This document shows positions 8,347-57,031 of a stretch of 64,000 nucleotides of DNA, one piece after another. Origin of the DNA: a bacterium (GTDB lineage: Bacteria; UBA8248); NCBI GenBank assembly GCA_965261085.1, contig OZ253442.1, forward strand, positions 3,360,001 through 3,424,000. Reading direction: 5' to 3'. The translations under genes and the position numbers were made by a program. The notes under the pieces were generated by a model. It ran no database searches. It had not been told where the DNA came from and worked only from the letters and a program-made list of their open reading frames with translations. Numbering within the stretch: the stretch's first letter is position 1; every line of letters begins with the position of its first letter.

Positions 8347-8623
8347 AAATCCTCCTGATCGGTCTCGTGAAGCTCAGGGGCCATCACGTGCGAAACAACA
8401 GCCTCGGCCATCATCTTCATATTCCAAACGACTTCAGGAGCTAATTCCCAAGGATGTTCTGGAACTGAAACGGCGTCTATCCGATTCTGAATACCGTCAG
8501 TTACTTCTAAAGCAAGGTCCAAACCCTTATCGGGCGAATGTCTCCGAATGTTGCGAAGCGCTAAAGCGAGCAGGAGAAGAAACTTGTTTACGCTTTCTTC
8601 GTGGGGATTTTGAGCAGGCATAG
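8327..8623 (+). CDS. Hypothetical protein (IS passenger)
   Basis: 98-aa ORF overlapping the transposase end; no recognisable motif; a competing ORF lies on the - strand. Confidence 0.35.
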   Translation: MKTAIRENPPDRSREAQGPSRAKQQPRPSSSYSKRLQELIPKDVLELKRRLSDSEYRQLLLKQGPNPYRANVSECCEALKRAGEETCLRFLRGDFEQA

Positions 8624-8654
8624 ATTCGTCCTTCCTTTCTAGGGGTTGGGCGCA

Positions 8655-8689
8655 AAAATACGGCGCTGGGCCTCATCACCCAGCGCCGT
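8655..8689 (-). terminator. Intrinsic terminator of the minus-strand passenger operon
   Basis: 11-bp stem acggcgctggg / cccagcgccgt followed on - by ATTTTT, just after the 8697 stop. Confidence 0.75.
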
Positions 8690-8696
8690 TGTCGTG

Positions 8697-8843
8697 CTAT
8701 TGCGAGCGTCCAGTCATCCAGCAGAAGATACCATAAACGGCACTTCCCATGCAGATCACGGCAAACAGGATGATCGTCCAGACGAAATCACCTACGAATT
8801 GAAATAAGCTCCATGCCGTGGCGCCTAGAATGTAATCAATCAT
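8697..8843 (-). CDS. Small hydrophobic membrane peptide (48 aa; not in ORF track)
   Basis: MIDYILGATAWSLFQFVGDFVWTIILFAVICMGSAVYGIFCWMTGRSQ; G-rich RBS; fills the gap between the upstream gene and the terminator. Confidence 0.6.
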   Translation of the reverse strand: MIDYILGATAWSLFQFVGDFVWTIILFAVICMGSAVYGIFCWMTGRSQ

Positions 8844-8853
8844 CCGCCACCCC

Positions 8854-9351
8854 CTATCGCCCCAGTGATTTTAGTTCGTTCAGGCAGGCGCGGCTGTATT
8901 TGTGACATCCCGTCTGGAAGTAGTAGTTCTTATCGAGCGCGCGGTTTCCGCGCTCCAGTTCTTTGACCTTCCATTCGGGCATCCTGAACCCGCGCGTGTA
9001 CGGTTGGGTCCCGTAGGGGTCGGAAGGGTTGTGTTGTTGGGCGCGTTGTCTCATTTCGCGGAGAGCATTTTGTAGGGCCTGCTGGCGCTGTATCTGTTGT
9101 TGCCTGAGCGCATGGAGGCGTTGCTCGAGGGTCTGCACTCCGCTTTGCCGCGCGGGCGAGTTAAGCGTCGGAAGCGAACCGAGCCCCGATGGCGTCCGGT
9201 ATTGGTGTCCTTGGTTCTGCTGGGGCTGGTATCCACCACCATATAGCGGGCTTCCGCCTTGAGGAAGTTGCGTGTACGGGACGGACTGCGCGGCCGCGGC
9301 CACCGGAAACGACAGAATCAGAAACAGAACTCCTATCTTTATGTGCTTCAT
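8854..9351 (-). CDS. Secreted Gln-rich hypothetical protein (165 aa)
   Basis: AAGGAG RBS; signal peptide MKHIKIGVLFLILSFPVAAAA; Q-rich coiled region; C-terminal Cys pair. Confidence 0.72.
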   Translation of the reverse strand: MKHIKIGVLFLILSFPVAAAAQSVPYTQLPQGGSPLYGGGYQPQQNQGHQYRTPSGLGSLPTLNSPARQSGVQTLEQRLHALRQQQIQRQQALQNALREMRQRAQQHNPSDPYGTQPYTRGFRMPEWKVKELERGNRALDKNYYFQTGCHKYSRACLNELKSLGR

Positions 9352-15399: not shown

Positions 15400-16455
15400 C
15401 TAGTCGTTTGAACTCGCCGCGCGCTCCTCCTGGAACGCGGGCATCACCTCATTCGCAAACCTCTCTAACGATTGAATCGCCTCGTCCTGGACGATGCCGC
15501 GCAGCACGAAGATCATGATGTGGTTCACCTTGAACTCCTCCTGGAGCCGCTTGAGATCGGCTATCACCTTATCCGGCGGGCCGATGACGCCGCCTCCCTC
15601 GATAACCTGGCGGATGTCGACGTCGTAGCTCCAGTTGCGCTTGAGCGCTTCTTTATCCTCCAGGGGCATCTCGATGGAATTCACCGCGCTGCGGTAGGAG
15701 AGATACCAGGATTCGGAAGGTTCGATTTGCTTCCAGGCGTGTTCGGGGTCGTCGCAAACATGGACGTGGTGCGCCATGAGGGAGGGATAATCATTCGGGT
15801 CACCGCCCCGGTTGCGCACGGTTTCGTTGAACAACGCCATTTTCTCGAGATACACGTCAGGCCCCTTGAAGGTGCCCGACGCCATGATGTTGTACCCACT
15901 CTGGCCGGCGAAGACATAGGTTTCGGGACTCGTGCCGGCCAACCAGATGGGAGGACGCGGCTTCTGGATGGGTTTGGGGAAAATCTCCGCGTCGATGCAG
16001 CTATAGTGCTTACCGTGGAAAGTGAGGCATTCCCCCTCCAGCAGGCGGGTCATCACCTCGAGGCCCTCCTGCATCTTCTCTCTGCTCTCGGTGGGCGAGA
16101 TGTTGAAGCCCTGAAATTCCTTGGGCTGGGAACCTCGTCCGACGCCCAACTCCAGACGCCCGCCGCTCAAAACGTCGACCAGGGCGGCCTGCTCGGCCAG
16201 ACGCACCGGATTATGGAAAGGCATGATGCAGATGGCGGTGCCGATTCTGATCTTTTTGCTTCGCTGCGCGATGGCGAGCGCGACCATCAAGGCGTCGGGA
16301 CACATACCCACGCGGGAGAAGTGGTGCTCGGCCAGAAACACGGTGTCGTAGCCGAGTTCGTCGGCCACCTCGCACTGTTCGAACAACTGCTCGAACTCGT
16401 GCTTGTAGGTTTCTCCCTCCTGACAGGCAGGAATATAGAAAAGCGAGAATTTCAT
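15400..16455 (-). CDS. LLM class flavin-dependent oxidoreductase
   Basis: AEHHF, PVRLAEQAALVDVLSGGRLELGVGRG, PKPIQKPRPPIWLAG. Confidence 0.93.
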   Translation of the reverse strand: MKFSLFYIPACQEGETYKHEFEQLFEQCEVADELGYDTVFLAEHHFSRVGMCPDALMVALAIAQRSKKIRIGTAICIMPFHNPVRLAEQAALVDVLSGGRLELGVGRGSQPKEFQGFNISPTESREKMQEGLEVMTRLLEGECLTFHGKHYSCIDAEIFPKPIQKPRPPIWLAGTSPETYVFAGQSGYNIMASGTFKGPDVYLEKMALFNETVRNRGGDPNDYPSLMAHHVHVCDDPEHAWKQIEPSESWYLSYRSAVNSIEMPLEDKEALKRNWSYDVDIRQVIEGGGVIGPPDKVIADLKRLQEEFKVNHIMIFVLRGIVQDEAIQSLERFANEVMPAFQEERAASSND

Positions 16456-16502
16456 CTTTCAGGTCTCCATCCCGTACATGATAATCGTGTGCGCAGGGCG
16501 TC

Positions 16503-16901
16503 TTAAGCACCCATCGTGAATACCTTGTTCGCCCGGATGCGGTAGATAACGCGCACCTGGCCCTCCTGGCGGTTGGGGTAGCTGTCCACGCCCAGATATT
16601 TTTTCGCCAAAGCGTCGATGTGCTCCTCCGCCCCGTTTTCCGTGACCTCCACCACCGTACCCTGCATCCCCACCCATTTGTAGGGATTTTCCGGGTCGAC
16701 GATGGCGATCGACACCTGCGGACGCACGCGCATGTTGAGGTCCTTCAGGCGGCCTTTGGCCGAATTGATCTCGATGATGTCCCCATTGGTATCGAACCAG
16801 ACGGGAGAGACCTGGGGGGAGCCGTCCTTGTTCTGGGTTCCCAGATACAAGAGGGCCTTGGTGTCGAGAATGCCGGCATGAGAATCGGGTATCAGCGCCA
16901 T
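16503..16901 (-). CDS. PPOX class F420-dependent oxidoreductase
   Basis: T.NKDGSPQVSPVWF, R.K..N....PQVSI..VDPENPY, HIDALAKKYLG. Confidence 0.88.
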   Translation of the reverse strand: MALIPDSHAGILDTKALLYLGTQNKDGSPQVSPVWFDTNGDIIEINSAKGRLKDLNMRVRPQVSIAIVDPENPYKWVGMQGTVVEVTENGAEEHIDALAKKYLGVDSYPNRQEGQVRVIYRIRANKVFTMGA

Positions 16902-16949
16902 TTTAGGTTCCTCATATGAAAAAGACGGTCGATTACGCCCGAGATGCGC

Positions 16950-17930
16950 TCATACGCACTTGGGCAAAACCTCTTCGGTGAACATTTTGAGAGATTCGTC
17001 GAAATCCTGGTTCGGGGGGTCGATCATGATGCTCTTGACCCCGTAGGATTCAATCTCCTGGATGCGATCGACGCACTCCTCGGGCGTTCCCGTGATGGTG
17101 AAGCGATCCAAAATGTAATCGGTGATGAGGGGCACGTGCTTCGGGTCGCGCCAGTTGCTCACGTCGAAATTGTCCAGGAGGTGTTGAATTTCGGGCTTGA
17201 ACGCATCGGGCACCGAGTCGAGCGTCATGCGGAAATTATGATGCGCGCGGTTCGCCACCCGCGCCCGCACCTTCTCACGCGCGCGCGTACTGTCGGTATC
17301 CACGGAGACGACCGCGCCGAAAATCACGTCCATCTCACCAAGAGAGGAATCGCGATTGGCAATCCCCTCGTTCAGGTACTTCAAAACCCAGTCCACCGTC
17401 TCCTTGTAGACGCCCGAACCCACGATGACGCCGTCCGCGATTTCACCGGACATGGCGAGCGTCCTGGGGCCTTCGGCGGAGGTGTATATGGGGATTTCGC
17501 GCGCGCACCACATGCTCACGTCCACGCCCTCGGCGTATTCAACCGTCTCGCCGCGCGTGAACGCGCGAATGGCCGCGATGGACTCGCGCATCCTGGCGAG
17601 TCTGGCCATCTTCTTGCCCAGGGTATAGACGGGCGTATCGCCCGAGCCGATGCCGAACAGCACGCGGCCTCCCGATAGTTCATCGAGCGTGGCGATAGCA
17701 CTCGCCGCGACGCTGTCGTCGTGAAGAACCGGATTCGTAACGCCCGGACCGATTTTCACATGCGAGGTCTTCTCGATCGCCAGAGCGAGCGCGATGTTGT
17801 GATCCCGGCAGGTGAGATGGCTCTCCGCTATCCATACCTGTTCGAAACCGTTGTCCTCGGCGTATTTCGAGCGCTCCGCCACGACCCGGACGTCATCCGG
17901 CACCAGATGAAGACTAAAGCTCATACCCAC
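16950..17930 (-). CDS. LLM class oxidoreductase, Mer-like (probably F420-dependent)
   Basis: IGPGVTNP, ATLDELSGGR..FGIGSGD, GPRTLAMSGEIADG. Confidence 0.85.
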   Translation of the reverse strand: MGMSFSLHLVPDDVRVVAERSKYAEDNGFEQVWIAESHLTCRDHNIALALAIEKTSHVKIGPGVTNPVLHDDSVAASAIATLDELSGGRVLFGIGSGDTPVYTLGKKMARLARMRESIAAIRAFTRGETVEYAEGVDVSMWCAREIPIYTSAEGPRTLAMSGEIADGVIVGSGVYKETVDWVLKYLNEGIANRDSSLGEMDVIFGAVVSVDTDSTRAREKVRARVANRAHHNFRMTLDSVPDAFKPEIQHLLDNFDVSNWRDPKHVPLITDYILDRFTITGTPEECVDRIQEIESYGVKSIMIDPPNQDFDESLKMFTEEVLPKCV

Positions 17931-45808: not shown

Positions 45809-46939
45809 CTATGCCTCCAGGCCGGCCATCAGCTCCGCAGGCTCAATGGGCAGTATCAGTTCGGCGCCTCGCTTGGCCGAGAGGTCCATCGCCATGGTCA
45901 GCATCAGGTTGCGATGCCCCTCGGCGGCGGTCGCATGGGGGGTGCGCTTGCCCGAATAAATCCGCTGGAACCAGGAGTTGGTCTCCTCGCGCATCGGACC
46001 CCAAAGCTCTCCGTCATACATGTCGCCCGGGGGGAAGCTGGTGAGAAAATCGACGTTGCGCCGCGCTTCGAGGTCGAAATCCTCCGGATTATAGGCGGGC
46101 CCTTGCGAGAACTCCGACGCCATCACCACGTCGCGGTGCGTGTCCTCGATGTCCACCACCCCCTTGGTGCCCACGATGCCGATTTCGAGTCCATACACCG
46201 CTCCGGGCCACTCCTTGGGCAGCGCCCAGCAGATGTTCATGCTCCAGATGGCGCCGCTATCCATCGTGAACACGCCGAAAGTGGCGTCCTTGGTGCCGAG
46301 ATCACTCAAAATCCCCTCGGTCGAGCGCGCGAAAATCGAGACCGGCTTGGCGTCGCCCATCAGCCACAGGCACATATCGAGACTGTGGGTGCCCGAAATG
46401 ACCATGGGCGTCAGAAACCGGCGATCCTGCGATAGACGGACCTCTCCGGTCGGCGCCATGCGGTTCATGAAGGCGCGCGTGACCACCGCTGTAACGTCGC
46501 CGATCTGGCCGCTTTGGACACGATCCTTCACGGCGAGGAAACGTCGGCGAAAACGCTGGGTGTAGCCGACGACGACGTCCACGCCGGCCGATTTTATCGC
46601 CGCGAGCACGGAGGCCGACTCACGCGCGTCCGTGGCGAGTGGTTTTTCTATCAGCATGGGCAGGCCACGCTCCGCCGCGGCGAGCGTGGGTTCGACGTGC
46701 GCCCAGGTCGACGTGGCGATGATCGCCGCATCCACCTCGGGACGGGCGATGAGTTCGTGAAAATCGGTGGTGAAATAATCGGCCCCGATGTCTACTTTCA
46801 GTTTCTCGCCGACCTTCTCGTTCATGTCGGAGAGGCCAATCCACCCGATTCCGGGGAAATCTCTGGCCAGTGCGCCCCGCATGCGCCCCACGACCCCACA
46901 GCCGACGATGGCCAGCCCGAGTTCTTTTTTATCCGACAT
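45809..46939 (-). CDS. Gfo/Idh/MocA family oxidoreductase
   Basis: IVGCGVVG, IEKPLA, GYTQRF; related to 4309-5403. Confidence 0.9.
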   Translation of the reverse strand: MSDKKELGLAIVGCGVVGRMRGALARDFPGIGWIGLSDMNEKVGEKLKVDIGADYFTTDFHELIARPEVDAAIIATSTWAHVEPTLAAAERGLPMLIEKPLATDARESASVLAAIKSAGVDVVVGYTQRFRRRFLAVKDRVQSGQIGDVTAVVTRAFMNRMAPTGEVRLSQDRRFLTPMVISGTHSLDMCLWLMGDAKPVSIFARSTEGILSDLGTKDATFGVFTMDSGAIWSMNICWALPKEWPGAVYGLEIGIVGTKGVVDIEDTHRDVVMASEFSQGPAYNPEDFDLEARRNVDFLTSFPPGDMYDGELWGPMREETNSWFQRIYSGKRTPHATAAEGHRNLMLTMAMDLSAKRGAELILPIEPAELMAGLEA

Positions 46940-47000
46940 TCCTCTTCCTTTCACTTTTGAAAATTTCGTCTCTGTGACCTCGTATGCGCGGCCGACAAGT

Positions 47001-47029
47001 AAAAGGCTGCGGACTCGCCGCAGCCTTTT
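47001..47029. terminator. Intrinsic terminator (probably the original tRNA terminator, displaced by integration)
   Basis: aaaaggctgcgg / ccgcagcctttt 12-bp stem immediately beyond the att repeat. Confidence 0.8.
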
Positions 47030-47036
47030 GTTTTCT

Positions 47037-47052
47037 TGGTAGCGGGAGGAGG
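47037..47052 (-). repeat. att direct repeat (copy of the tRNA-fMet 3' end)
   Basis: tggtagcgggaggagg versus tggtagcggggggagg at 56523-56538 (15/16). Confidence 0.85.
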
Positions 47053-47309
47053 TGTAGAATCTACATATTAACTTATTGTATTTATTGAAGTTACATTTTA
47101 TGCTCCGCTTCTTTTACCACGATAAATACCACTCATAATGTGGGAATATACGGGAATATCATCGGCTCCTAGTATGCGCTCACCACGCTTATACCACGAA
47201 CGCCGACACGTTTTCGACCTCTAAGCGCCTCAAATATTCAGGAGGATTCTCGGGTAGGGGGAAGGGCCTGGCGCTCGCCCTGCGCCGCCACTGCAAGGAT
47301 GAGGTGCTG

Positions 47310-47528
47310 TCATAGTGGGTACCCCGCTTCGTCGTATCTCGCGTTCGTCTCCATGGCCTTCTCGATTAGGCGATCAAGTTCCTGCGTCCCGTAGTGAAGA
47401 TTTTCCACCAGGAAATCCCATTCCGCCGCGCTTAGGTTTTCCATTCCGTGCTCCCGCGCTCGTTCGAGTAAAACCTGCGCGCGCGCGGTCGGGTCTCGCC
47501 AGGTCTTCTTCATCCTGGCCCTACTCAT
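47310..47528 (-). CDS. Hypothetical protein (satellite)
   Basis: 72 aa; overlaps the portal stop. Confidence 0.6.
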   Translation of the reverse strand: MSRARMKKTWRDPTARAQVLLERAREHGMENLSAAEWDFLVENLHYGTQELDRLIEKAMETNARYDEAGYPL

Positions 47529-48594
47529 TCAAAACTCCCGACACGGCGGCGGCTTGTTCAAGCGCCATGCCTCCTTGCACCATTTTCGCAAATGACGCCG
47601 CTCTGCCTTGCAAGTCGTGCGCCCATAGGCGGCTCAAGTCGAAGCTGATCCGTGTCTCAAGTTTCGCCTCAAATTCTTGTTTCACGATCTCGAGTAGCGG
47701 CTCCACCGATCCCATGACGAAACGCCGCCAGCTTTCGCGCTGGCTTGTGCCATCCGCATCCGAGGCGAGACTCACGGGAACGCCGCAAGCGCTCAAAACG
47801 CTCATCCCGGATTCGCTCCGAAGGAACCTAAGAGTGTCGGGCGGATCGGCTCCGAGGCGTGATGAGACGAAATCTTTACGCGGCGCTTCACTCATGCCTT
47901 TTTGCCAGCCGCCCGCCGTGGTTTCCGTCAAAATGGTACGGCCCTTCGCGGCGGCGATGTCGGCCTTGAGCATCTTGAGCGGATCGTCACCTTCACCGTC
48001 TCCGCCGTCCGAGGGAATGGGAACAACGTGCGCCACCGGGCCGCCCGCTTCTTCGCCCAAGCGTTTTTCGAGATTGCCCGCAAGCGTTCCCGTTTCTCGC
48101 GCCCACCCGAGCGGCCCGACGCCGTACCACGGACGCGCCGGATCAACTGCGTATCGGAAATGCAGTACCTGGCCCGACTGGACAAGGCGCGTGAGATTTC
48201 CCGAGGGACCGAAAAGATCGGCCCGGTAAAACCAACTTGACTCATCATGGCCGCCCCTCACGTCCCAGCTTCCCACGGGGAGAAATTCCACTTGCCCGCG
48301 GCGTAGCTCGATGACGTGCAAGCCTTCGCCGCGGCGGATGAGATTTCGTGCGATGAGGGCCATCATCCCCGGAGTGATTCTTTCCGCCCGGTCGCCTGTA
48401 ACCTTCGCGGCGGCGAAGGCTTGCGCATAGAGCGCCGCGCTGGTTTCGAGCGCCCACGTCTGCGCGGGATCGCCCGGCATGGTTCCTTCGGCTTGCGATA
48501 CGATGGCTTGAACGAGCGCGTCCGTGAAGGGTTGCGTTTCCCGCTTCTCCGCCGCGCCGCCGCGCCAGTCTATCGCCGGAATTTGCGCGCTCAT
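47521..48594 (-). CDS. Phage portal protein (short, HK97-like)
   Basis: NLIRRGEG, VLHFRY......YGVGPL, SACGVP.SL, VEPLL...QEF..KL; ATGA overlap with the connector. Confidence 0.8.
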   Translation of the reverse strand: MSAQIPAIDWRGGAAEKRETQPFTDALVQAIVSQAEGTMPGDPAQTWALETSAALYAQAFAAAKVTGDRAERITPGMMALIARNLIRRGEGLHVIELRRGQVEFLPVGSWDVRGGHDESSWFYRADLFGPSGNLTRLVQSGQVLHFRYAVDPARPWYGVGPLGWARETGTLAGNLEKRLGEEAGGPVAHVVPIPSDGGDGEGDDPLKMLKADIAAAKGRTILTETTAGGWQKGMSEAPRKDFVSSRLGADPPDTLRFLRSESGMSVLSACGVPVSLASDADGTSQRESWRRFVMGSVEPLLEIVKQEFEAKLETRISFDLSRLWAHDLQGRAASFAKMVQGGMALEQAAAVSGVLNE

Positions 48595-48953
48595 CCGATC
48601 ACCCCCCCGCGTCGCACTTTCCACCTCGTCAAAAGTGCCCCGGCGCCCGATAGCTGGAACGACGAAGCGGGCGGCGCCATACGGAATTCGATCACCACAT
48701 CCCCCACGTCTATTTTCTGGATCGATCCGGGCGGCGCTTGCGCCAAATATCCCGCGTAACGAATCAGCGCCTCATCCTTCACGGCTTGCGGAGCGAGAGG
48801 CGCATACTCTTCGATAACCGCCGCCGCCACTTCCCCGAGTTCGGAGATTGTCTCATCGTCCGCACTACTCAAACCCGAGACACGCCTTTTCAGTTTCGCA
48901 ATCGCCGCCGTGCGGGCTTGCGTGCCGGCGTTCGGCCAAGGACTCAGAGCCAT
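48591..48953 (-). CDS. Putative head-tail connector (gp6-like)
   Basis: 120 aa helical: D..I..L...AAAVIE.Y, P.AVK.A, LL..WK; lies in the head module. Confidence 0.65.
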   Translation of the reverse strand: MALSPWPNAGTQARTAAIAKLKRRVSGLSSADDETISELGEVAAAVIEEYAPLAPQAVKDEALIRYAGYLAQAPPGSIQKIDVGDVVIEFRMAPPASSFQLSGAGALLTRWKVRRGGVIG

Positions 48954-49918
48954 AATCTCGACCTCCTGGGTTCGCCGGCAGCGCCAGCCGGCATGTCATC
49001 ATCGCGGCCACGCCGAAAACGAACAGGCGTCCACCCCCCGCTCGCGTCAGTAGCACCAATCTGCAAGGCCCTGATTCTCGCTTTCTGATAGGTTGCCCTG
49101 CCTGCCTCAAGAACAAAATCAGAAGCACCCGCCGCCGTGTCGATGACGGGCCTTGCGATAACGTCCGCCGCGTCCATGCTTTCGAGCAATGCCCTGCCCC
49201 GTGGCGAGTCGGGAACGTCTAGCGCATACTCCAAACCGCCGCGCTTGTCAGACCAAAATCGGAGCGTCTTTCGTTTCCGGCTCCCAAGCGGGTTTGCATA
49301 TTCCCCGAGCACGGCGAGCGCGTCTTTTTGTTGATCCGGATCAATCGCCCCGTCCAAAGCGCCGCTCTCGAAAAGAGCTTCCGTGCAATCACCGGGAGAA
49401 CACCGGCATTCGACCGCCCGCTTCGCCGGGATGTTTCCCCGGATCGTTCGTAGACGCTTAGCGCGTTCCTCGCGTTGGCGGGCCGACACGATGCTTTGCT
49501 CATACTGCGGATCGTCAACCACGGCGACGCCGACAAGCTGCGCTTTCTCGATGATTCTGATATCACCGTCCTGGTGTTCCTGCCTCGAATGAAATTCGAT
49601 GCTCAGACCTCGCAAGATTTTTGCTTTTACGAGAGCGATTGTTTCCGTCGCGGATGGCGTGTTCGGGAGCGTGGCGCGAATGCGGAGCTCTTCGGGTGAG
49701 TCGATGAGCTCAAGGCCGCCGCCGCCCGTGCGAGCGAGGGGCGTTTTCCGGTCGTGCTGTCTGTTCAAAATTGTGTCGCCCAAGGGCGCGAACGCGCCCG
49801 GATCGATGCGCTCCCGGCCCCACGGGAAAACCGCCTCATCCCCGTAAACGAGCGCCGCGCCTTCGAGTAAACGACCTTCGGATTGTCGCAGTTCGAGAAA
49901 GCGTCTCTCCGGTTCCAT
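48944..49918 (-). CDS. HK97-type prohead protease with a C-terminal extension
   Basis: LEG.A.VY, ERIDPGAF, LNRQHD...PLART, GLSIEF, VAVVDDPQY. Confidence 0.85.
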   Translation of the reverse strand: MEPERRFLELRQSEGRLLEGAALVYGDEAVFPWGRERIDPGAFAPLGDTILNRQHDRKTPLARTGGGGLELIDSPEELRIRATLPNTPSATETIALVKAKILRGLSIEFHSRQEHQDGDIRIIEKAQLVGVAVVDDPQYEQSIVSARQREERAKRLRTIRGNIPAKRAVECRCSPGDCTEALFESGALDGAIDPDQQKDALAVLGEYANPLGSRKRKTLRFWSDKRGGLEYALDVPDSPRGRALLESMDAADVIARPVIDTAAGASDFVLEAGRATYQKARIRALQIGATDASGGWTPVRFRRGRDDDMPAGAAGEPRRSRLWL

Positions 49919-49920
49919 GA

Positions 49921-50193
49921 CTACACCTCGTCGACGACTACGTGGGCGATTGCGCCGGTGCGTGGAACCCATATCCAAACCTTGTCCAGGCCGGTCGCAT
50001 AAACGATTCGCTCTTCGCCTGGTTGCATTATCGGGCCGCGCTTCGAAGATGTTGGCGCGGCGGGAGAAAACCGGATGCGGACGCGCTCGGAGTTTGAAAG
50101 ATTCTCGATACTGTGGTGATTTGAGAAATCAATTCCCAAGGCCGCGCCCAGGTCTTGCGGCGTGTCGGTCGCCTCAAAATCAAGAGTCGCCAT
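49921..50193 (-). CDS. Small virion-associated protein (possible capsid decoration)
   Basis: 90 aa beta-rich, directly after the capsid gene; GGAGG RBS. Confidence 0.55.
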   Translation of the reverse strand: MATLDFEATDTPQDLGAALGIDFSNHHSIENLSNSERVRIRFSPAAPTSSKRGPIMQPGEERIVYATGLDKVWIWVPRTGAIAHVVVDEV

Positions 50194-50205
50194 TTTCGCG
50201 GCCTC

Positions 50206-51525
50206 CTACGCCACCTTGAAGGAAATCCGTTTATAGGCGTCGGCCCGGAAAGCGGCCTCCAGATCCCAAAGCGTGATCCACGTCAGCACCACACCTTGGC
50301 TCGCCTTCGAGTAGATATCCCGGATCACTTCGAGTGTTGGCCATACCGCTGCCACGGAATCGCCTCGCATCGCTCCGCCGTTCGGCCCGGCGGCGTGGAA
50401 AATGTTGCCCGACTGGATGTCCTGATTCGCGCCCGAGTCGGGCGGGGCGGGAACGTAGCTTGAGGCGACGCACATCATAGAGCGGCGCATGAGCGCTTCC
50501 GACGCGCTCTCATCGCTACCCGCTCCGGTGCGGTAGGTTCGGGCCGCCAACTGATACGACGCGACGCCGACCACGCTAGAGACTTCGCCCTCTCGTTGCG
50601 CGTGGACTCCATCCACGGCGCTCGCATGACTCCCGGCAAAATCCTCGAAGGTGGCAATGGCGCTTGGTGCGGTGGGAGCGGCGATTTTCTCATAGAAACC
50701 GGACGGCTCTTGCGCGTTCGTGGCCTCATCGCCGTTGAGCGCCAGGGCGCTCATCTTGCTTTTCACGGCGTCGGCCAGGTCGCGGCGAAGGGCTTGTTCG
50801 AGATCGGGAACCTGGGCGGACTGTTCATGCGTATATTCGTATCGGCCCGTAAGTCTTTTCGGCTTGAGCGTTTCCGTGTCGAACGTCGCCTCGCCCGCCG
50901 CCGCCGCCGCCATTCCTTCGGCCACGTTCGCGGGCGCGACGCCACCCGTGAGCAAAGGCCATTCCGTGCGGCCCGAAGGAACGGAATCTATCCGGACCCC
51001 GAGCGCATCCAAGATGCCCGACCCGAAAAGACGTTGCAGGATCGGACGTTGCGCGACCCCGCCCGCGTAGTCGCCGGTATCCGTGAATGCCCGGCGCTCC
51101 GCTTGCCTCGCTTCGGGCGCAGGGGAAGGGCCGGACAAAACGATCCACGGGATGCAAACGCCGCCGCTCTTGCCGACGGTCGACAACTGGAGGGCCGCGT
51201 TCAATTCCTTCGCCCGGCCCTCGATGCCGACGCCACCCGCCGCCCGGGTGAGATAGTCGCCGATTGAAACCGCGCCCATCAACTGGCGGATTTCCGTGCT
51301 CTCCCCGTCGCCTTCGTTGAAAGCGCCTTGCATCCGGGCTTCGTCTTCACCTTCGGCCACGATGGCGCTCCGGTGGCGTACTTCCAGATCGCCGTACTCG
51401 GCTTGAAGGGCGCTCGCTTCGTTCCTAATTTCTTCGGTGAAGGCGTCGCCCTCGATGCCGGATATTTCGTTCAAGCGGCCCCGCACTTCGGAGAGCCTGA
51501 TTTCGATTTTCTGTTTATTCGTCAT
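50206..51525 (-). CDS. Major capsid protein, HK97-type with N-terminal coiled-coil delta domain
   Basis: Coiled-coil N-terminus, GG.C.P, VAEG, F....LKPKRL, ALNGD.....PSG; AAGGAG RBS. Confidence 0.85.
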   Translation of the reverse strand: MTNKQKIEIRLSEVRGRLNEISGIEGDAFTEEIRNEASALQAEYGDLEVRHRSAIVAEGEDEARMQGAFNEGDGESTEIRQLMGAVSIGDYLTRAAGGVGIEGRAKELNAALQLSTVGKSGGVCIPWIVLSGPSPAPEARQAERRAFTDTGDYAGGVAQRPILQRLFGSGILDALGVRIDSVPSGRTEWPLLTGGVAPANVAEGMAAAAAGEATFDTETLKPKRLTGRYEYTHEQSAQVPDLEQALRRDLADAVKSKMSALALNGDEATNAQEPSGFYEKIAAPTAPSAIATFEDFAGSHASAVDGVHAQREGEVSSVVGVASYQLAARTYRTGAGSDESASEALMRRSMMCVASSYVPAPPDSGANQDIQSGNIFHAAGPNGGAMRGDSVAAVWPTLEVIRDIYSKASQGVVLTWITLWDLEAAFRADAYKRISFKVA

Positions 51526-51612
51526 TGTTTAATCTCCTTTCATGCCCCGCCCATCAGTGCATAAGATGTACTAATATACATTATTATAAATACTAAACAA
51601 GGTGACAGAATG

Positions 51613-51906
51613 TCATGGTGTGTCGACCAGCTCGCGCACCAGCTCGCGCCACGCTTCGACGCCTGGACGCGGCGGCGGGCGATGCGAGGCGATATGACAA
51701 TCCCGGCAATAGGTCGCCGTGTTCGTCATGGCGAAAGGTTCTCCGCCATCTTCGAGCGGCTTGATATGGTGAGCTTCGAGGCGACCGGCTTTGCCGCAAA
51801 TTACGCAACGCCAGCCGTCGCGCTCGAAAACGGATTTTCGGAATGCGGCCCACCGGCGCTTACTCAGTTTCGCGTGATGACGGCTCCCCGGATGCTTTCG
51901 ACTCAT
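51613..51906 (-). CDS. HNH endonuclease (gp74-like terminase cofactor)
   Basis: RW..FR..VFERDGWRCVICG...EAHHIKP..GG.....N....CRDCH. Confidence 0.92.
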   Translation of the reverse strand: MSRKHPGSRHHAKLSKRRWAAFRKSVFERDGWRCVICGKAGRLEAHHIKPLEDGGEPFAMTNTATYCRDCHIASHRPPPRPGVEAWRELVRELVDTP

Positions 51907-53399
51907 CCCACAATCGCCGATCGGAGCCGTCGCGGCGCTTGTGTTTTCTTTGCCCTGCGATAGCCCGCCGCAACGGCAAGGATGGCGGCGGCCGCTGCGT
52001 CATCCCTCGCCCGTTTTCGTCGGCCGCCTTGCGTGGATTTCGAGAGCTTGGCATTCCCGGCCGCGTCCATCACCACGCGGGCCTCGCTCATGGCGGCCGT
52101 CATCAAAAGCGAGCGCGAGGGCCGCACCGCGTCCGCAAGGCAAGCCTCCCGGAAAAGCCGCACGTCTTCTCCGCCGTCCTTGAATCCCTGCCCGCGCACC
52201 TCAACAGCCGTGAGGGGGAAACCGGCTTTTTCGAGCGAATCTCGCAACTCCGCCTCGCGCCACCTATCGCATACAATGAGATCGGGAAAGCCCCACCGCT
52301 CGCGCACTTCGTGAAGCAATGAGCGAATATCGGAAACGCGCCGCCCGGCGATGATCAACTCCCCCCGCTCCGCCATGCGACGATACAAACCGCCGACGCC
52401 ATCCGAAAGGCCACGCTCGCGCAAGTCGGGAAGCTCGGGAAAACACGCCACGCACTCAAGCGCCTTCGTGTCTGGCCAGTAGGCCGCCGCCGCGCTCATC
52501 GCCGCCGACGTGCCAAGGTCAAGCCCGAGCGCCCAGCGTCCCCGGCGTTCGTTTTCCGGGGCCTCGATGCGCGCCCACGTTCCCGCGTCAAGCAAGGTGC
52601 TTAGGAGCGTGTCGGGAGTGCCAAGGTTAAGCCGGTATGCTTCAAACTCCGCCAGCTTGGAAGCATCGCGCCGGGCCTCATCCGCTTCCTTGCGAATCCG
52701 GGCCTCAAGCGCCGGGAGATATTTGAGTGAGGGATTCGCCTTCGCCCACGTCCGGCGCTGAAACGGAGAATCGTCTTTTCGCGCCGCGTGGCATTGCGCA
52801 TAGTCCGCGCTTTCGAGTAATCGGGAAAACCAATGCTCGGGGGTGTCGGGTTTCGTTCCCAGCGCCACCATGCGAGAGCCGGGAATTTTCCCCATTGCAG
52901 TTCGGAGCGCCGACACCATTCTATCGCTTTTTGACGGCTCCCATTGCGCGGGTTCATCCGCCAACACAAGCGCCGGTGCCAGCCCGTGCGCTCGCGCCGG
53001 ATCGCATCCGATACAACGCACTCTAGCTCCGCTCGGGCGGTGCTCGATGGCGGCGTTTTGCGCCGTGTCCCACACCCGCCACTCGCTCTTGAGCGCCAGC
53101 CGGTCGCCGATAAACGCCCGGACGTGTTCAAAACTGATTCGCGCTTGCCCGAAGGATGACGCCGCAATAATCACGTCCGCTCTCGGCTTTCGGAGCGGGC
53201 CGTCTAGGAAGGCCGCCGCCACTCCCGAGAGTAAGGTTGTTTTCCCGTTCCCCCTCGCCACGGATAGGGCCGCGTCGCCATCCACCCCGAACGCGCCGCG
53301 AAGGAACCTGCGCTCCCACGGGAAAAGCGGGAACGGCTCCCCCACGCCCTCGCCCTGGGTAACCTGTAGGCCCTCGATGTATTTGAGAAGCGGTCGCAT
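51903..53399 (-). CDS. terL: Terminase large subunit
   Basis: Walker A VARGNGKT, QARISF, Walker B LVLADE, WAKANPSL, LGLDLG nuclease, C-terminal D...A. Confidence 0.9.
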   Translation of the reverse strand: MRPLLKYIEGLQVTQGEGVGEPFPLFPWERRFLRGAFGVDGDAALSVARGNGKTTLLSGVAAAFLDGPLRKPRADVIIAASSFGQARISFEHVRAFIGDRLALKSEWRVWDTAQNAAIEHRPSGARVRCIGCDPARAHGLAPALVLADEPAQWEPSKSDRMVSALRTAMGKIPGSRMVALGTKPDTPEHWFSRLLESADYAQCHAARKDDSPFQRRTWAKANPSLKYLPALEARIRKEADEARRDASKLAEFEAYRLNLGTPDTLLSTLLDAGTWARIEAPENERRGRWALGLDLGTSAAMSAAAAYWPDTKALECVACFPELPDLRERGLSDGVGGLYRRMAERGELIIAGRRVSDIRSLLHEVRERWGFPDLIVCDRWREAELRDSLEKAGFPLTAVEVRGQGFKDGGEDVRLFREACLADAVRPSRSLLMTAAMSEARVVMDAAGNAKLSKSTQGGRRKRARDDAAAAAILAVAAGYRRAKKTQAPRRLRSAIVG

Positions 53400-53484
53400 T
53401 CAAGACTCCCGGAGAGGCTTTTGTTTGAAGTTCGTCTCTACCCCCACGCCCCCCAAGGAATTTCGGCTACTATCGGCGGTGCCA

Positions 53485-53712
53485 TCATCGCGCCGTTCGC
53501 TCCACGTCCGCGTTCATGGCTTCCGCGAGAGCAGCGGCGAACTCGCGGCCCCTCTCGCGTCCTCGCAGTCGGTTCGTGACCCGGATGACTCCCATGCGGA
53601 CGTGCCATCGCTCCAGTTCGGCAAAGGGGAGAACCCGGCCACACCGCCCACACACAAGCGCCACGTCACCCACTTCGGGGATGCGCCAGCGGTGCGGACG
53701 GCAAGCGAGCAT
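53485..53712 (-). CDS. Small Cys/His protein (possible zinc binding)
   Basis: MLACRPHRW...VCGRCGR; TGATG overlap with the upstream ORF. Confidence 0.55.
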   Translation of the reverse strand: MLACRPHRWRIPEVGDVALVCGRCGRVLPFAELERWHVRMGVIRVTNRLRGRERGREFAAALAEAMNADVERTAR

Positions 53713-53888
53713 CAGTCTTGCTCCGCTTCGCCCATTCGCCGCGCAAATTCCTCGTCCAATGCCGCGCACATCGCTTCGCGCTGATCCGGCTCACAATTCT
53801 CGAGGTAGAATTTGAACAAGTCCAGTCGATTTTTCGGGTCATCTGCAATGAGAATGACGGCCCCGTTGCAAAAGGAAATTTGAATCAT
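53712..53888 (-). CDS. Small hypothetical protein (58 aa; not in ORF track)
   Basis: MIQISFCNGAVILIADDPKNRLDLFKFYLENCEPDQREAMCAALDEEFARRMGEAEQD; GAGG upstream; coupled to the next ORF. Confidence 0.55.
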   Translation of the reverse strand: MIQISFCNGAVILIADDPKNRLDLFKFYLENCEPDQREAMCAALDEEFARRMGEAEQD

Positions 53889-54389
53889 TTTTTCATCCTC
53901 TCGAAAAATTTTGGCCCGATACCTTCAGACCCTTAAAATCCTTAAAAGATGAAGAACAATGCCCTCAATCAGGCAGGGGCCGCGCCATCCACCAAGAAGC
54001 GATCACTCGGGGAAGGCAATGTCTCGCCTGCCTCGCTGCGCTCAGTAGCGGCTCGCCTTTCAGTTCATCGCCGCCGCCCCATCGGATATCCCGGAGGCCG
54101 CGCCTGGGCGCACCTCCCCTTACGAAGGAGAGGTGCGGAGGTCATCCCGTGTGGCCGACTTTTCACGCTGCGTCATCTTCCCGGAAAGTTTCTGCGAGGG
54201 GGCGTTCGCCGTGTCCCTTTCTCAAGGGCGATTCATGGCGTCGGCCTGTCCGCTTTTCTCGACGGCTCGCTCCGCCTTCCATTGCCAGCCCGCCATGACG
54301 CTTCCCTCGGCGGTGTGCTACGCTGGTACCTCTGCACGAGAATCACCCCCGCGTGACGGAGCGTTCGAGGCACCGACACACCACGCGAG

Positions 54390-54427
54390 GAAAAAGAAAC
54401 CCCGGCCTTGCGAGCCGGGGGTTTCTT
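54390..54427 (-). terminator. Intrinsic terminator after alpA
   Basis: aagaaacccccggc..gccggggtttcttttt on the - strand. Confidence 0.75.
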
Positions 54428-54638
54428 ATGAGGCCGCTACTACCGCTTCCGGTGTTTCGCCTTGCGCGACCGGGCGGGAGTCGAGCCATTCCTCGAGATC
54501 GGAGAGTCGCCACCTCACACTGCGTGGCCCGACGCGGATCGCGGGAGGAAACCAACCCTCTTTGAGGCCGCGATAAATTTTTGAGCGTGAGACCCTGCAG
54601 AATTGCTCGACTTCGGGGCGGGTGAGTAGCGTTTCCAT
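54426..54638 (-). CDS. alpA: AlpA family regulator / excisionase
   Basis: LL...EV....VSRSKIY.....G.FPP.I..G.RSVRW..SD..EWL; AGGAGG RBS. Confidence 0.92.
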   Translation of the reverse strand: METLLTRPEVEQFCRVSRSKIYRGLKEGWFPPAIRVGPRSVRWRLSDLEEWLDSRPVAQGETPEAVVAAS

Positions 54639-54767
54639 TTCGTGTCCTCCTGTGCTTGGGAAGTTCTTTGTCTACACAGAAGATAGCGCCGAAGGAAATC
54701 TAAAAAGAATCCACTTAATTCATTTTTTTTGAGGAAATTTCCGGGGATTATTTGTCAAATAAGTAGA

Positions 54768-55184
54768 CTAGAGATTTTTGCGATCATCAAATATTTTTTC
54801 AAGATAGGTGCATTTCAAACCGATTTCTTTCCCTAGTTCGTTGCAAAGCGAATCCTCCCAGTTCACCTTGTCAACGATGGCTCGCTTGACTCCGTTTCGC
54901 TTCGCCTCGTCTTTGCGGCGGATCAGTTCTTCAACGATCATCCGGTTTCGGAGTTTGGTGTTTTCAATGATGATCCGAAACTCTTTGCCGCCGTGATTTA
55001 TTCGAGGCCCCGGCTTCAAAATCGGGAGGCGCTCGGTGAAAGGTAGCGTCTCTCGCTCCTTGCGACGCTTTTCTCTGTCCTTGCACTCAAACTCACGAAG
55101 CCGATTCCAATAAAACCGGGCCTCCAACCGTTCGAATCGTTCCGCAACGGAAATGAACCTCTCCAAAACATCGGTATTCCTCAT
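54768..55184 (-). CDS. Hypothetical basic protein coupled to the integrase
   Basis: 138 aa; ATGA overlap with the integrase stop; lower GC. Confidence 0.6.
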   Translation of the reverse strand: MRNTDVLERFISVAERFERLEARFYWNRLREFECKDREKRRKERETLPFTERLPILKPGPRINHGGKEFRIIIENTKLRNRMIVEELIRRKDEAKRNGVKRAIVDKVNWEDSLCNELGKEIGLKCTYLEKIFDDRKNL

Positions 55185-56365
55185 CGAATCGCCACCACCT
55201 TCCCGGCCTCGCCACCTGCTACGAAACGACCCCATTGATCCATGAGCCGACGCCGCTTCTCGAAAAGATCGGAGCGCGCATAGCTTCGTTCAACATCGCT
55301 CCCGACTTGGTGCGCAAGCGCCAATTCCATGACGGCGTGCTCGGCGTTCGTTTTCTCGCTCGCCCACGTTCGGAATGACGTGCGGAATCCGTGAATAGTC
55401 GCCCGAGACGCGAGGCCCGTGTCTCTCAAAATCTTCGTCATGGTCATGTCCGAAAGCGGCTTGCCTGTCTTCATGGGCGAGGGAAAAATCACACCTTCGC
55501 CACCGGAAAGCGGGCGCGCTTGTTCGAGCACGGCGAGCACCTCATCGCTTAGTGGAACGCGATGTTCTTTTCCACCCTTCATGCGCTGGCCAGGGATGCG
55601 CCATTCTCGCGCCTCGGTGTCGATTTCTCCCCACGTCGCACCGCGCACTTCGCCCGAGCGCGCCGCGCATAAAATCAAAAACCGGATCGCCAGCTTCGCG
55701 GCCATCGACGCCCCGCTCGATTCGATGATATCGAGCGCCTGCCCGACTTCCCGATAATCCAGCGCCCGGAAGTGCGCCTTCACCTTCGCCATACGCGGGA
55801 GCGCGCCATCGATGGCCTCACCGGCGGGATTGTTCTCGATGAATCCGTGGGCCTGCGCCCACTGCATCACGGAGCGGATTTTCTGACGTAGCTTGCGAGC
55901 CGTCTCCGACTTGGTGCTCCATATCGGCGTCAAAATGCGGAGCACTGCCTCGCGGTCAATCTCATCAATGCGCATATCGCCTATGGCGGGAAAAGCATAC
56001 TTGCTCACAATCTGAATCCAGTTCTTCGCGTGTTTCTCGGCGCGCCATCGCGGCTTGTTCGCTTCGTACACCTTGTGGGCGGCTTCCCGGAATGTCGGCA
56101 TCTTCGCCCGGCGCTTCTCCGCCAGTATGTCGCGCTTCTCAATGCGAGCGGCCCGGCGGTTTTCGTGCGCCTTCTCTCTCGCTTCGGCCAAACTCACCAA
56201 AGAAAACGAGCCGAGGCCGATATCTCGGCGAACGCCGTTGATCGCCAGCCTTTGCACCCAGCTTTTCGCCCCGGATGGGGAAATGTTGAGGTAAAGCGTG
56301 TCGCCTGCGCGATAGCGGCCAGGTGTTTTGAGTGATTTCGCCCTTGCGGCGGTGAATTTTTCCAT
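55181..56365 (-). CDS. int: P4-like tyrosine integrase with Arm DNA-binding domain
   Basis: LYL.I...G.KSW...GLGS...SLAEAR arm domain; catalytic R (ARSGE), HGFR, LAH and Y. Confidence 0.95.
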   Translation of the reverse strand: MEKFTAARAKSLKTPGRYRAGDTLYLNISPSGAKSWVQRLAINGVRRDIGLGSFSLVSLAEAREKAHENRRAARIEKRDILAEKRRAKMPTFREAAHKVYEANKPRWRAEKHAKNWIQIVSKYAFPAIGDMRIDEIDREAVLRILTPIWSTKSETARKLRQKIRSVMQWAQAHGFIENNPAGEAIDGALPRMAKVKAHFRALDYREVGQALDIIESSGASMAAKLAIRFLILCAARSGEVRGATWGEIDTEAREWRIPGQRMKGGKEHRVPLSDEVLAVLEQARPLSGGEGVIFPSPMKTGKPLSDMTMTKILRDTGLASRATIHGFRTSFRTWASEKTNAEHAVMELALAHQVGSDVERSYARSDLFEKRRRLMDQWGRFVAGGEAGKVVAIR

Positions 56366-56410
56366 GCGTTTCCCTCCGTTTCCCACCTCATTTCCCACGT
56401 TCAATCAGGG

Positions 56411-56439
56411 AATCTATGAGAATCGAAAGGAATTGTCAA
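56411..56439 (-). promoter_or_regulatory. Putative integrase promoter
   Basis: TTGACA-17-TAGATT on the - strand. Confidence 0.55.
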
Positions 56440-56452
56440 GCCCCCAAAAGCA

Positions 56453-56482
56453 CCGAAACCCCTTTGTTTCAAGGGGTTTCGG
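56453..56482 (-). terminator. Element-supplied terminator downstream of the tRNA
   Basis: ccgaaacccctt / aaggggtttcgg 12-bp stem followed by TGCTTTT on -. Confidence 0.7.
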
Positions 56483-56522
56483 GGTGTTTCGGGTATTTCT
56501 GGAAATGTATGAAATGAGTGCG

Positions 56523-56599
<77 letters not shown>

Positions 56600-56704
56600 T
56601 CAATATGTGTTATCTACTCCCGCATGGGCATTCTGTCAAGGAGAAGAGGTTTTCGAGAAACACCAGGGAGGCTCCCTTGACGTCAAGGCACCGAAAATCG
56701 TGCA

Positions 56705-57031
56705 TCATTTTTTCGAGGGAATGAACTCGTAGACGACTTCCCCTTTCTTGACGAGGCCTAAATCTTCTCTTGCAATCTTTTCGATCGCCTGCTTATCGGA
56801 GCGCAGAGAACGAATCTCCGCGCTCAATTCCTTGTTCTTCGTCTTTATTTCCTCGATCTCTATTTTGAGTTCGGACACGCGCTCTTTATTCACGATGACG
56901 GCGAGATACCCATCCTGGCCAAGCCATGCGGTTCCCAGCAACAAGAGGATGATGCCAGCAGAAATCCAGAAGAAGAGTCTAGCGGCTTTTGGCGATTGGC
57001 CCGTGCTGGATGATCGCCCTGCTTTTCGCAT
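56705..57031 (-). CDS. ftsB: Septum formation initiator, FtsB/DivIC family
   Basis: TM helix, G..G, coiled coil, IEKIAREDLGLVK.GE. Confidence 0.88.
   Translation of the reverse strand: MRKAGRSSSTGQSPKAARLFFWISAGIILLLLGTAWLGQDGYLAVIVNKERVSELKIEIEEIKTKNKELSAEIRSLRSDKQAIEKIAREDLGLVKKGEVVYEFIPSKK

Follow-up and report, generated by a model that had tools for sequence, protein, structure and literature searches.

We analyzed a 64,000-nucleotide stretch of DNA (the window) from a bacterium of the GTDB lineage UBA8248 (assembly GCA_965261085.1, contig OZ253442.1, positions 3,360,001 to 3,424,000) and found that it contains an intact mobile element that encodes head and packaging proteins of a phage and no recognizable tail. 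The element, 9,486 bp in length, is inserted in the gene for tRNA-Met at its 3' end (window positions 47037-56548). It is not a one-off remnant, and it is one member of a large and apparently unnamed lineage of 9-11 kb tail-less, capsid-forming mobile elements. We think that it is probably a capsid-forming phage satellite. It would resemble the phage-inducible chromosomal islands that form capsids (cf-PICIs) and belong to a separate lineage, and it would build small heads of about T=4 and obtain tails and lysis functions from a helper phage.

All of the genes of the element are on the minus strand and none is interrupted (Table 1). An earlier note on this DNA, made from the letters without database searches, had described a head-only element at a tRNA gene, with an att repeat at each end, an integrase, AlpA, and uninterrupted head genes in the order terL, HNH, capsid, small open reading frame (ORF), protease, connector, portal, and this description was confirmed. 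The note had recognized no tail, lysis, primase, helicase, or small terminase (TerS) gene. Likewise, no scanned ORF in the window matched a tail, lysis (holin or endolysin), primase or helicase, or TerS family in Pfam, PHROG, or NCBIfam. Start and stop codons overlap at the terL/HNH, orf58/orf75, protease/orf120, and orf120/portal boundaries, and the likely start of the portal gene is the ATG at 48594, which overlaps the stop of orf120. Seven core components of cf-PICIs were recognizable (integrase, AlpA, HNH, TerL, capsid, protease, and portal), counted with Pfam and PHROG models and not with SatelliteFinder's own profiles. In the capsid protein, about 150 aa precede the Pfam match on the N-terminal side and may constitute a scaffold or delta-like domain. 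The protease has a C-terminal extension of about 170 aa. The orf75 product is possibly a zinc ribbon, judging from its residues, and the non-coding stretch at 53889-54399 is a possible regulatory, cos, or origin region.

The site of insertion could be defined by comparison with other genomes of the genus. The tRNA-Met gene lies next to the conserved left flank in all nine of the same-genus loci examined (L017-L025), and in each of them the site is empty. It is directly adjacent to the flank in eight of the nine and about 200 nt further away in L018. Because of this arrangement, we conclude that the att repeat of the window copy is real. The first 16 bases of the repeat contain one mismatch (10 exact, the mismatch, 5 exact), and a crossover among the first 10 shared bases would account for it. 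When two of the empty sites (genomes G031 and G027) were aligned with both junctions, the intact tRNA gene started exactly at 47037, and a 16-nt shared core was followed by element DNA. The 1 kb of left flank was found in all 23 genomes of the genus, and only two of these (G000 and G020) carry the capsid gene, as do three of the 51 genomes in the phylum. We conclude that the insertion is precise and that close strains are polymorphic for the element. With the site empty in all nine congeners, the gain of the element is recent. The repeats of the earlier note thus stood, in imperfect form (21 of 26 bases), and its naming of the target as tRNA-fMet was supported by the tools only as tRNA-Met. 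The fMet reading comes from three G-C pairs beside the anticodon loop and an unpaired 1:72 position, which we take to be hallmarks of the initiator tRNA. The original terminator of the tRNA gene is now stranded at about 47008-47033, just to the left of 47037.

The head genes are under purifying selection. Between the window element and L001, a congeneric copy, the ratio of nonsynonymous to synonymous substitution rates (dN/dS) was 0.11-0.22 for TerL, HNH, capsid, protease, orf120, and portal, with dS values of 0.8-1.9 that are partly saturated. L001 is inserted at a different tRNA gene from the window copy and has exact 22-nt repeats. There were no tail genes, or room for them, in any relative that we read. 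One relative, L012 (G002:C7), has a frameshift in the integrase gene near residue 60 (16044-17240) and a portal gene split over two frames (7910-8970); it is either a decaying copy or a product of indel errors in the assembly.

Homologues of the window element were identified with its capsid protein and then with TerL. Of 8000 candidates that were scored, 862 are homologues of the capsid protein at E 1e-3 or better, and identity is 60% or more for each of the best 120. Scans with the capsid protein gave no contigs in IMG/VR when the single protein was used, two contigs with an alignment (A1), four in metagenomes, and one in genomes. A scan of IMG/VR with a TerL alignment built from eight loci (A6) detected at least 454 TerL relatives among 600 pattern matches, of which the best 80 were kept. 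In total we read 90 loci: eight found through the capsid protein (the window, L001, L012, L003, L004, L005, L007, and L008), the 80 IMG/VR contigs, and two in Pseudorhodobacter turbinis. The order terL-HNH-capsid-protease-portal was found in 90 of 90. In all 80 IMG/VR contigs, terL, HNH, and capsid are followed by protease, orf120, and portal where the contig reaches, on one strand, and all five of terL, HNH, capsid, protease, and portal are present in 63. The median length of these 80 contigs is 9,974 bp. L001 is from a metagenome-assembled genome (MAG) titled Nitrospinota bacterium and appears to be the same as G020:C226, from the genus of the window; L012 is from G002, of the same class. 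The two loci in the cultured Pseudorhodobacter turbinis S12M18 (Rhodobacterales) are on a 1.58-Mb replicon (NZ_CP039965.1). MAGs titled Nitrospinota and Thiotrichales, as well as this Rhodobacterales isolate, are among the hosts of the family.

Both ends could be defined for 22 elements. Eighteen, including the window element, are bounded by direct repeats and four are circular assemblies, and 21 of the 22 measure 9.0-11.2 kb. The repeat-bounded elements comprise the window copy, L001 (9,494 bp), L012 (10,515 bp), and L003 (10,325 bp); a group of 9,690-11,164 bp (L027, L028, L037, L049, L057, L059, L078, L084, L085, L093, L096, and L100); and the two in P. turbinis, L107 (10,645 bp, 27-nt repeats) and L106 (13,731 bp, at tRNA-Cys, 55-nt repeats). 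At most of the repeats there is overlap with the 3' end of a tRNA gene, and the amino acids concerned are Met, Glu, Asn, Lys, Ala, Leu, Ser, Arg, and Cys; there was no tRNA gene at the repeats of L100 or L107. Three repeats are just 15-16 nt long; two of them begin precisely at the 3' end of a tRNA, and the third resembles such an end. The circular assemblies (L005, 9,031 bp; L008, 9,459 bp; L031, 10,095 bp; L083, 10,640 bp) have exact terminal overlaps of 99-103 nt, and that of L083 ends 22 nt short of the contig end. Among 119 capsid-bearing contigs, 32 are 8.4-10.7 kb in length, compared to 16 in the size bin below and three in the bin above. This peak is not proof of free circles because strain-variable insertions, too, cause assemblies to break at their ends, as happened in the contigs of the sequencing runs described below.

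The earlier note had proposed that the element represents a distinct minimal family and not a prophage remnant, and this view was borne out by the constant gene order, the narrow range of sizes, and the low dN/dS values. The syntenic att-bounded copies and the circle of about 9-10 kb that it had suggested looking for were both found, the circles in relatives (L005, L008, L031, and L083). The findings that it said would count against its proposal were not obtained: no relative has room for a tail, selection on the head genes is not relaxed, and the gene order is unlike that of cf-PICIs as these have been described. We found no paper that names this family, and the supplements of PMC13669383 and PMC10085698 may list members.

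The region between the integrase or AlpA gene and terL differs from element to element. L012 and L003 encode AAA_25 ATPases (2e-27 and 4e-32). L005 and L008 encode PF03090 replicases (6e-33 and 2e-29) and no integrase, and L031 has a homologue of these replicases (30-31% identity), so three of the four circular assemblies have a plasmid-type replicase in place of an integrase. L004 encodes a zinc-ribbon/HTH_36 protein, of which L026 has a homologue (33% identity). In the 80 IMG/VR loci, many of which are on cut contigs, the queries used detected an integrase in 23, AAA_25 in 13, AlpA in 11, and a replicase in one. The window element has no replication gene, and there is no remnant of the replication genes of relatives in its non-coding stretch of about 500 bp. 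L001, in which the largest product of this interval is a 149-aa winged-helix protein, and L028, which has only small ORFs there, also have no replication gene; these three copies are at three different tRNA genes. The absence of a replication module noted earlier therefore holds for the window copy, L001, and L028, and is not a trait of the family because relatives carry AAA_25, PF03090, or HTH_36 proteins. Taken together, each member of the family has two modules. The maintenance module is variable and is either a plasmid-type replicase or a tyrosine integrase with AlpA that targets a tRNA gene, and the head-and-packaging operon, terL-HNH-capsid-protease-(orf120)-portal, is fixed.

The gene that the earlier note called a connector is present as orf120, and the label is a guess because the product has no match in Pfam, PHROG, NCBIfam, or the PDB. 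Profile searches of PDB sequences with two orf120 alignments (A2 and A5) gave only chance matches (E 0.75 or worse), and neither orf120 nor a homologue (P0144) was found in the ESM Atlas. The gene is present in all eight of the loci found through the capsid protein, encodes 115-125 aa, and is under strong constraint, with a dN/dS of 0.11 against L001. Its translation is coupled to that of the protease and portal genes. A profile search yielded 1640 representative relatives at E 1e-3 or better, none with a Pfam family over that domain. Among 45 orf120 relatives, three (P0190, P0214, and P0219) are fused to an N-terminal PF23148 domain, the podophage GP4 fiber-tail adaptor of Pfam, and one weakly matches PF05135 (E 0.012). 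In the element, orf120 is the sole candidate for an adaptor or connector, and an adaptor role for it is hypothetical. Two other relatives (P0180 and P0183) have extra C-terminal domains of about 100-160 aa without a family, and comparison of orf90 with these domains was not significant. The subfamily of the window, including L008 (4316-5392), has a long protease (344-358 aa in total). A larger IMG/VR clade has a short protease of about 190 aa, with the portal gene immediately after it and no orf120. The protease extension and orf120 may go together.

Four public sequencing runs were searched as contigs, in which rare forms would be lost. In two runs from one sample (X1 and X3), positions 47034 and 56523 are joined in one contig per run, separated by three other letters. 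One side of this joint is a weak match of just 29 letters at 85% likeness, and the form resembles the empty site of the congeners. Flank contigs in these runs had depths of 28-34 and 6-19 differences, element contigs had depths of 8-10 and zero differences, and the flank bins sum to roughly the depths of the flank and element contigs together. These data weakly suggest that the joint comes from a co-occurring strain without the element and not from excision, and they give no sign of amplification of the element. The sample seemingly contains a more abundant close strain, with about 1-2% differences in the flank, about three-fold greater depth, and an empty tRNA-Met site. There was no circular (attP) joint among the 15 joints listed, of 119.

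Some features in and around the element are apart from these arguments. A search of Rfam over 46500-57000 (E up to 0.1) found only tRNA-Met. ARAGORN predicted a 90-nt tRNA-Arg(CCG) inside the capsid gene (50471-50560, plus strand), which is probably false, as Rfam was blank there at the same threshold. PADLOC gave no defense match for orf155 or for nine unassigned ORFs located before or within the head operon of relatives; its sole signal was a weak SoFic-like helix-turn-helix match in L001. A gene in the left flank (45809-46954, minus strand) belongs to an expanded family with several paralogues (64-69% DNA identity) in each genome of the genus, and is unrelated to the element.

Table 1. Features of the element and of its insertion site, listed in the direction of transcription. 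Positions are those of the window.
Feature	Position	Strand	Basis or remark
tRNA-Met(CAT), targeted for integration, with the proximal att site at its 3' end	56523-56599	-	ARAGORN; Rfam tRNA 66 bits
Strong terminator-like hairpin, 12 pairs	56453-56482	-	Element-supplied, directly behind the rebuilt tRNA-Met; replaces the original terminator
Promoter-like site upstream of int	56411-56439	-	10/12 matches
Tyrosine integrase (arm-binding, central, and catalytic domains)	55181-56404	-	PF13356, PF22022, PF00589; phrog_1 6.6e-54
orf155, AT-rich accessory ORF between int and alpA	54768-55235	-	No family
AlpA-family regulator/excisionase	54426-54638	-	PF05930 2.8e-14; phrog_66
Terminator-like hairpin 3' of alpA	54400-54420	-	Followed by ~500 bp with no ORF
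Non-coding stretch, ~500 bp, from the alpA terminator to the head operon	53889-54399		No Rfam match
orf58, first small ORF of the head operon	53712-53888	-	No family
orf75, Cys/His-rich, conserved in L001	53485-53712	-	Shorter reading of the listed orf94; no family
TerL, HK97 type	51903-53399	-	phrog_9 7e-66
HNH endonuclease	51613-51906	-	PF01844 1.7e-7; phrog_589 1.3e-16
HK97-fold major capsid protein, 439 aa	50206-51525	-	PF05065 4e-8 over residues 160-295; TIGR01554
orf90, between capsid and protease	49921-50193	-	No family; homologue in L003
S78 prohead serine protease, HK97 type	48944-49978	-	PF04586 9.5e-24; TIGR01543 6e-17
orf120 ('connector' of the earlier note), between protease and portal	48591-48953	-	No family
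Portal protein, 367 aa as listed	47521-48624	-	PF04860 2e-13; phrog_12; TIGR01537 below cut-off; 71% identical to L001
orf72, small ORF after the portal gene	47310-47528	-	No family
AT-rich non-coding arm beside the distal att site	47063-47309		GC 0.53 vs ~0.62 around
Distal att site, displaced copy of the tRNA-Met 3' end	47037-47062	-	21/26 bases identical to 56523-56548

We propose the following model for how such an element would spread. The element would be silent in the tRNA-Met gene until a signal, most likely a helper phage, causes AlpA and the integrase to excise it. The head operon would then be expressed, and the capsid protein, with its own N-terminal scaffold region, would assemble on the portal into a small shell of about T=4 that is matured by the S78 protease. 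The HK97-type TerL, with HNH, would cut and package one genome of about 9.5 kb, presumably in a cos-type reaction. The filled tail-less heads would receive tails from the helper phage and be released by its lysis functions, as in cf-PICIs. A copy without a replicase, like that in the window, would rely on replication by the host or the helper. The analogy rests on the T=4 heads and borrowed tails of cf-PICIs, on the capacity of a T=4 shell for about 10 kbp, and on the existence of capsid-encoding satellites without a primase.

Several points weigh against this model. No member of the family has been seen to form particles, to be induced, or to be transferred. There is no known helper: the genome that carries the element (one contig of 4.27 Mb, 96% complete) has no other match to PF04860, PF03237 (Terminase_6N), PF10145 (PhageMin_Tail tape measure), PF05065, or PF04984 (sheath), in a search that covered these five families and was not a full prophage search. 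It also has only one TerL of this type. The helper could be a virulent phage. TerS was not found among 10 small ORFs from seven elements (PHROGs, E up to 0.5), and a divergent TerS is possible. No head-tail adaptor or connector was identified, as comparisons of orf120 with gp6 and gp7 of HK97 were not significant (hhalign, E 0.32-0.88), and orf120 was detected with the queries used in only five of the 80 IMG/VR loci. In addition, the att repeat of the window copy is imperfect.

Other explanations account for parts of the data. The element could be an autonomous minimal virus or virus-like plasmid that has no helper and delivers its DNA without a borrowed tail, for example with a minimal vertex structure made of small unknown proteins or by uptake of heads or vesicles. 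The absence of helper prophage markers from the host genome, the three circular relatives that have their own replicase and no integrase, and the three of 45 orf120 relatives fused to a podophage fiber-tail adaptor domain are consistent with this. So is the low frequency of tail genes in small genomes: they were described in only 4.3% of genomes below 11.6 kb that encode a major capsid protein, in a paper whose available text also discusses non-canonical life styles (PMC13669383). However, the presence of a portal and TerL points to canonical packaging and portal-mediated exit, and there is no match to a holin or endolysin family. In addition, the ORFs of the element that have no assignment add up to only about 570 aa, and a podophage set of adaptor, nozzle, fiber, and lysis proteins needs more than this. 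We therefore consider an autonomous virus unlikely. We give a small chance to a broader statement, namely that the 9-11 kb elements are the smallest known self-encapsidating double-stranded DNA replicons, below the 11.6 kb floor of isolated tailed phages, and that they form an ancient lineage apart from others, fixed in an operon order of its own and existing as tRNA islands or replicase plasmids; in its boldest form, head-only particles would spread without the tail of a helper.

The element could also have arisen within an already described cf-PICI clade by loss of the primase, TerS, and connector genes. Such an origin would fit the integrase, AlpA, HNH, TerL, capsid, protease, and portal that the two have in common, the lack of tail and lysis genes, and the HK97-type packaging of both. 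It is quite improbable given the order of genes, which is fixed in 90 of 90 loci and contrasts with the very conserved organization described for cf-PICIs, with a median size of 14 kb (PMC10085698). Further, just seven of 11 components were recognizable, by comparison with published descriptions of cf-PICIs, tblastn searches of 50,697 phage records gave no match to the capsid or portal protein (E 1e-3 or better), and the hosts include the MAGs titled Nitrospinota and Thiotrichales and the Rhodobacterales isolate. It seems very unlikely that the element is immobile or domesticated in this host, a fixed island with head genes that are kept for a host purpose or have not yet decayed. The imperfect att repeat and the lack of a replication gene could be read in this way. 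In contrast, all of the genes are open and constrained (dN/dS 0.11-0.22), the empty sites in nine of nine congeners indicate a recent gain, a crossover within the first 10 shared bases would explain the mismatch, and the congeneric L001 has exact repeats at a different tRNA gene. The idea that the element is the decayed remnant of a full-size tailed prophage has already been largely refuted, and we give it almost no weight. The element does have head genes only, and L012 has a frameshifted integrase and a split portal gene, but elements of this size and gene content are found again at many independent att sites and also as circles, no relative that we read has tail genes or room for them, and the genes are under purifying selection.

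If the element is a capsid-forming satellite, as we favor, several things would follow. So far, the capsid-forming satellites on record are mainly cf-PICIs of about 14 kb from Proteobacteria and Firmicutes. The family described here would be a second widespread lineage, with a smaller genome and a different fixed architecture, in other phyla (among them the MAGs titled Nitrospinota) and in a Rhodobacterales isolate. At least 80 'viral genomes' of about 10 kb in IMG/VR would be head-only satellites and not viruses. The minimal gene set for a DNA-filled HK97 head would consist of TerL, HNH, the capsid protein, the protease, and the portal, and might include one small protein, and the same head cassette on an integrase or a plasmid replicase would indicate module swapping. 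The cultured carrier P. turbinis S12M18 is a possible experimental model.

We compared the element with several known systems. A gene transfer agent (GTA) does not mobilize itself, packages host DNA at random, and has no integrase or att sites. The integrase, att repeats, and empty sites of the element show a mobile insertion, and members of the family are at tRNA genes for nine amino acids. In view of the integrase, the att sites, and the movement between tRNA genes, the tailless or GTA-like particle that the earlier note had raised as an alternative is unlikely. Nor is the element a classical PICI or P4-like satellite, which would hijack the capsid proteins of a helper and have no full head module, as it encodes its own capsid, protease, portal, and TerL, and it is not an intact tailed prophage, since tail, lysis, and replication modules were not found and it is only 9.5 kb. 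The virion-encapsidated integrative mobile elements (VEIMEs) encode no capsid protein, according to the accessible text of PMC9618062.

The families of the head proteins are those of the HK97 head module, namely TerL, HNH-dependent packaging, the S78 protease, the HK97-fold capsid, and an HK97-type portal. Pairwise similarity to HK97 is limited to TerL (28.7-29% identical to gp2, E 8e-36). The capsid of the larger IMG/VR clade (L046) has just 26-31% identity to isolated phages. In HK97 the order is terS-terL-portal-protease-capsid, followed by adaptor, closure, and tail genes, whereas in the element it is terL-HNH-capsid-protease-portal.

Two satellites from Streptomyces, MulchRoom and MiniFlayer, are described as capsid-encoding and without a primase (PMC10690885). 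They share TerL, portal, capsid, and HNH with the element, and MulchRoom has a tyrosine integrase. They differ, as described there, in being linear with direct terminal repeats of about 1 kb, in having TerS, scaffold, and adaptor genes and 20-26 genes in all, and in their actinobacterial hosts. MiniFlayer also encodes a tail fiber protein and possible adsorption genes, unlike the element. Small integrated mycobacterial elements of the phiRv1/phiRv2 type, with an integrase plus a gene for the major capsid protein, are treated as PICI-like satellites in the sections available of PMC10654092 and PMC10085698, and those with tyrosine integrases are described as being located at tRNA genes, like the element. 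By comparison, phiRv1 uses a serine integrase. Elements of this type are about 10 kb, with an HK97-like protease and terminase in the order terminase-protease-capsid, and to our knowledge no portal or HNH has been reported in them.

The circular relatives L005, L008, L031, and L083 would fall among the 'twilight-zone' HK97-fold mini genomes, which are metagenomic contigs of 5-11.6 kb with direct terminal repeats and rarely with tail genes (PMC13669383). The group described in detail there has no terminase or portal and encapsulin-like capsids, and the rest is not homogeneous; in its accessible text the paper does not single out a terL-HNH-capsid-protease-portal family. The same source projects a capacity of about 10 kbp for a T=4 shell.

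The closest known systems are the cf-PICIs, for example EcCIEDL933. They share with the element an integrase and AlpA, an HK97-type TerL with HNH, capsid, protease, and portal, the absence of tail and lysis genes, and a small genome that would fit a T=4 head. The gene order of cf-PICIs follows HK97. They differ from the element, which has the order terL-HNH-capsid-protease-portal and relatives of 9-11 kb (vs a median of 14 kb), has no recognizable TerS, adaptor, or connector, and has a replication module that is absent here and varied in relatives, some of which are circles that carry a replicase and no integrase. Hosts of the family include the MAGs titled Nitrospinota, whereas cf-PICIs have been reported from Proteobacteria and Firmicutes. 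In the descriptions available, the heads that cf-PICIs make with a packaging module of the HK97 type are T=4 and tail-less, with tails from other phages added later (10.1101/2025.02.11.637232), cf-PICIs have 9-11 of 11 core components in a very conserved organization with a median size of 14 kb (PMC10085698), and a size of about 10-18 kb with conserved organization serves as a criterion (10.1101/2025.02.11.637232; PMC10085698). The element has a recombinase, AlpA, its own capsid, protease, and portal, TerL with HNH, and no lysis or complete tail module. Neither a replication module nor a small terminase was recognized in it, its size (9,486 bp) and organization differ, and fewer than nine of the 11 core components are recognizable. 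Because seven components are recognizable, the order is different, and the size is smaller, we have not classified it as a cf-PICI, a distinction drawn from the published descriptions, and we regard it instead as a probable capsid-forming satellite of a separate lineage.

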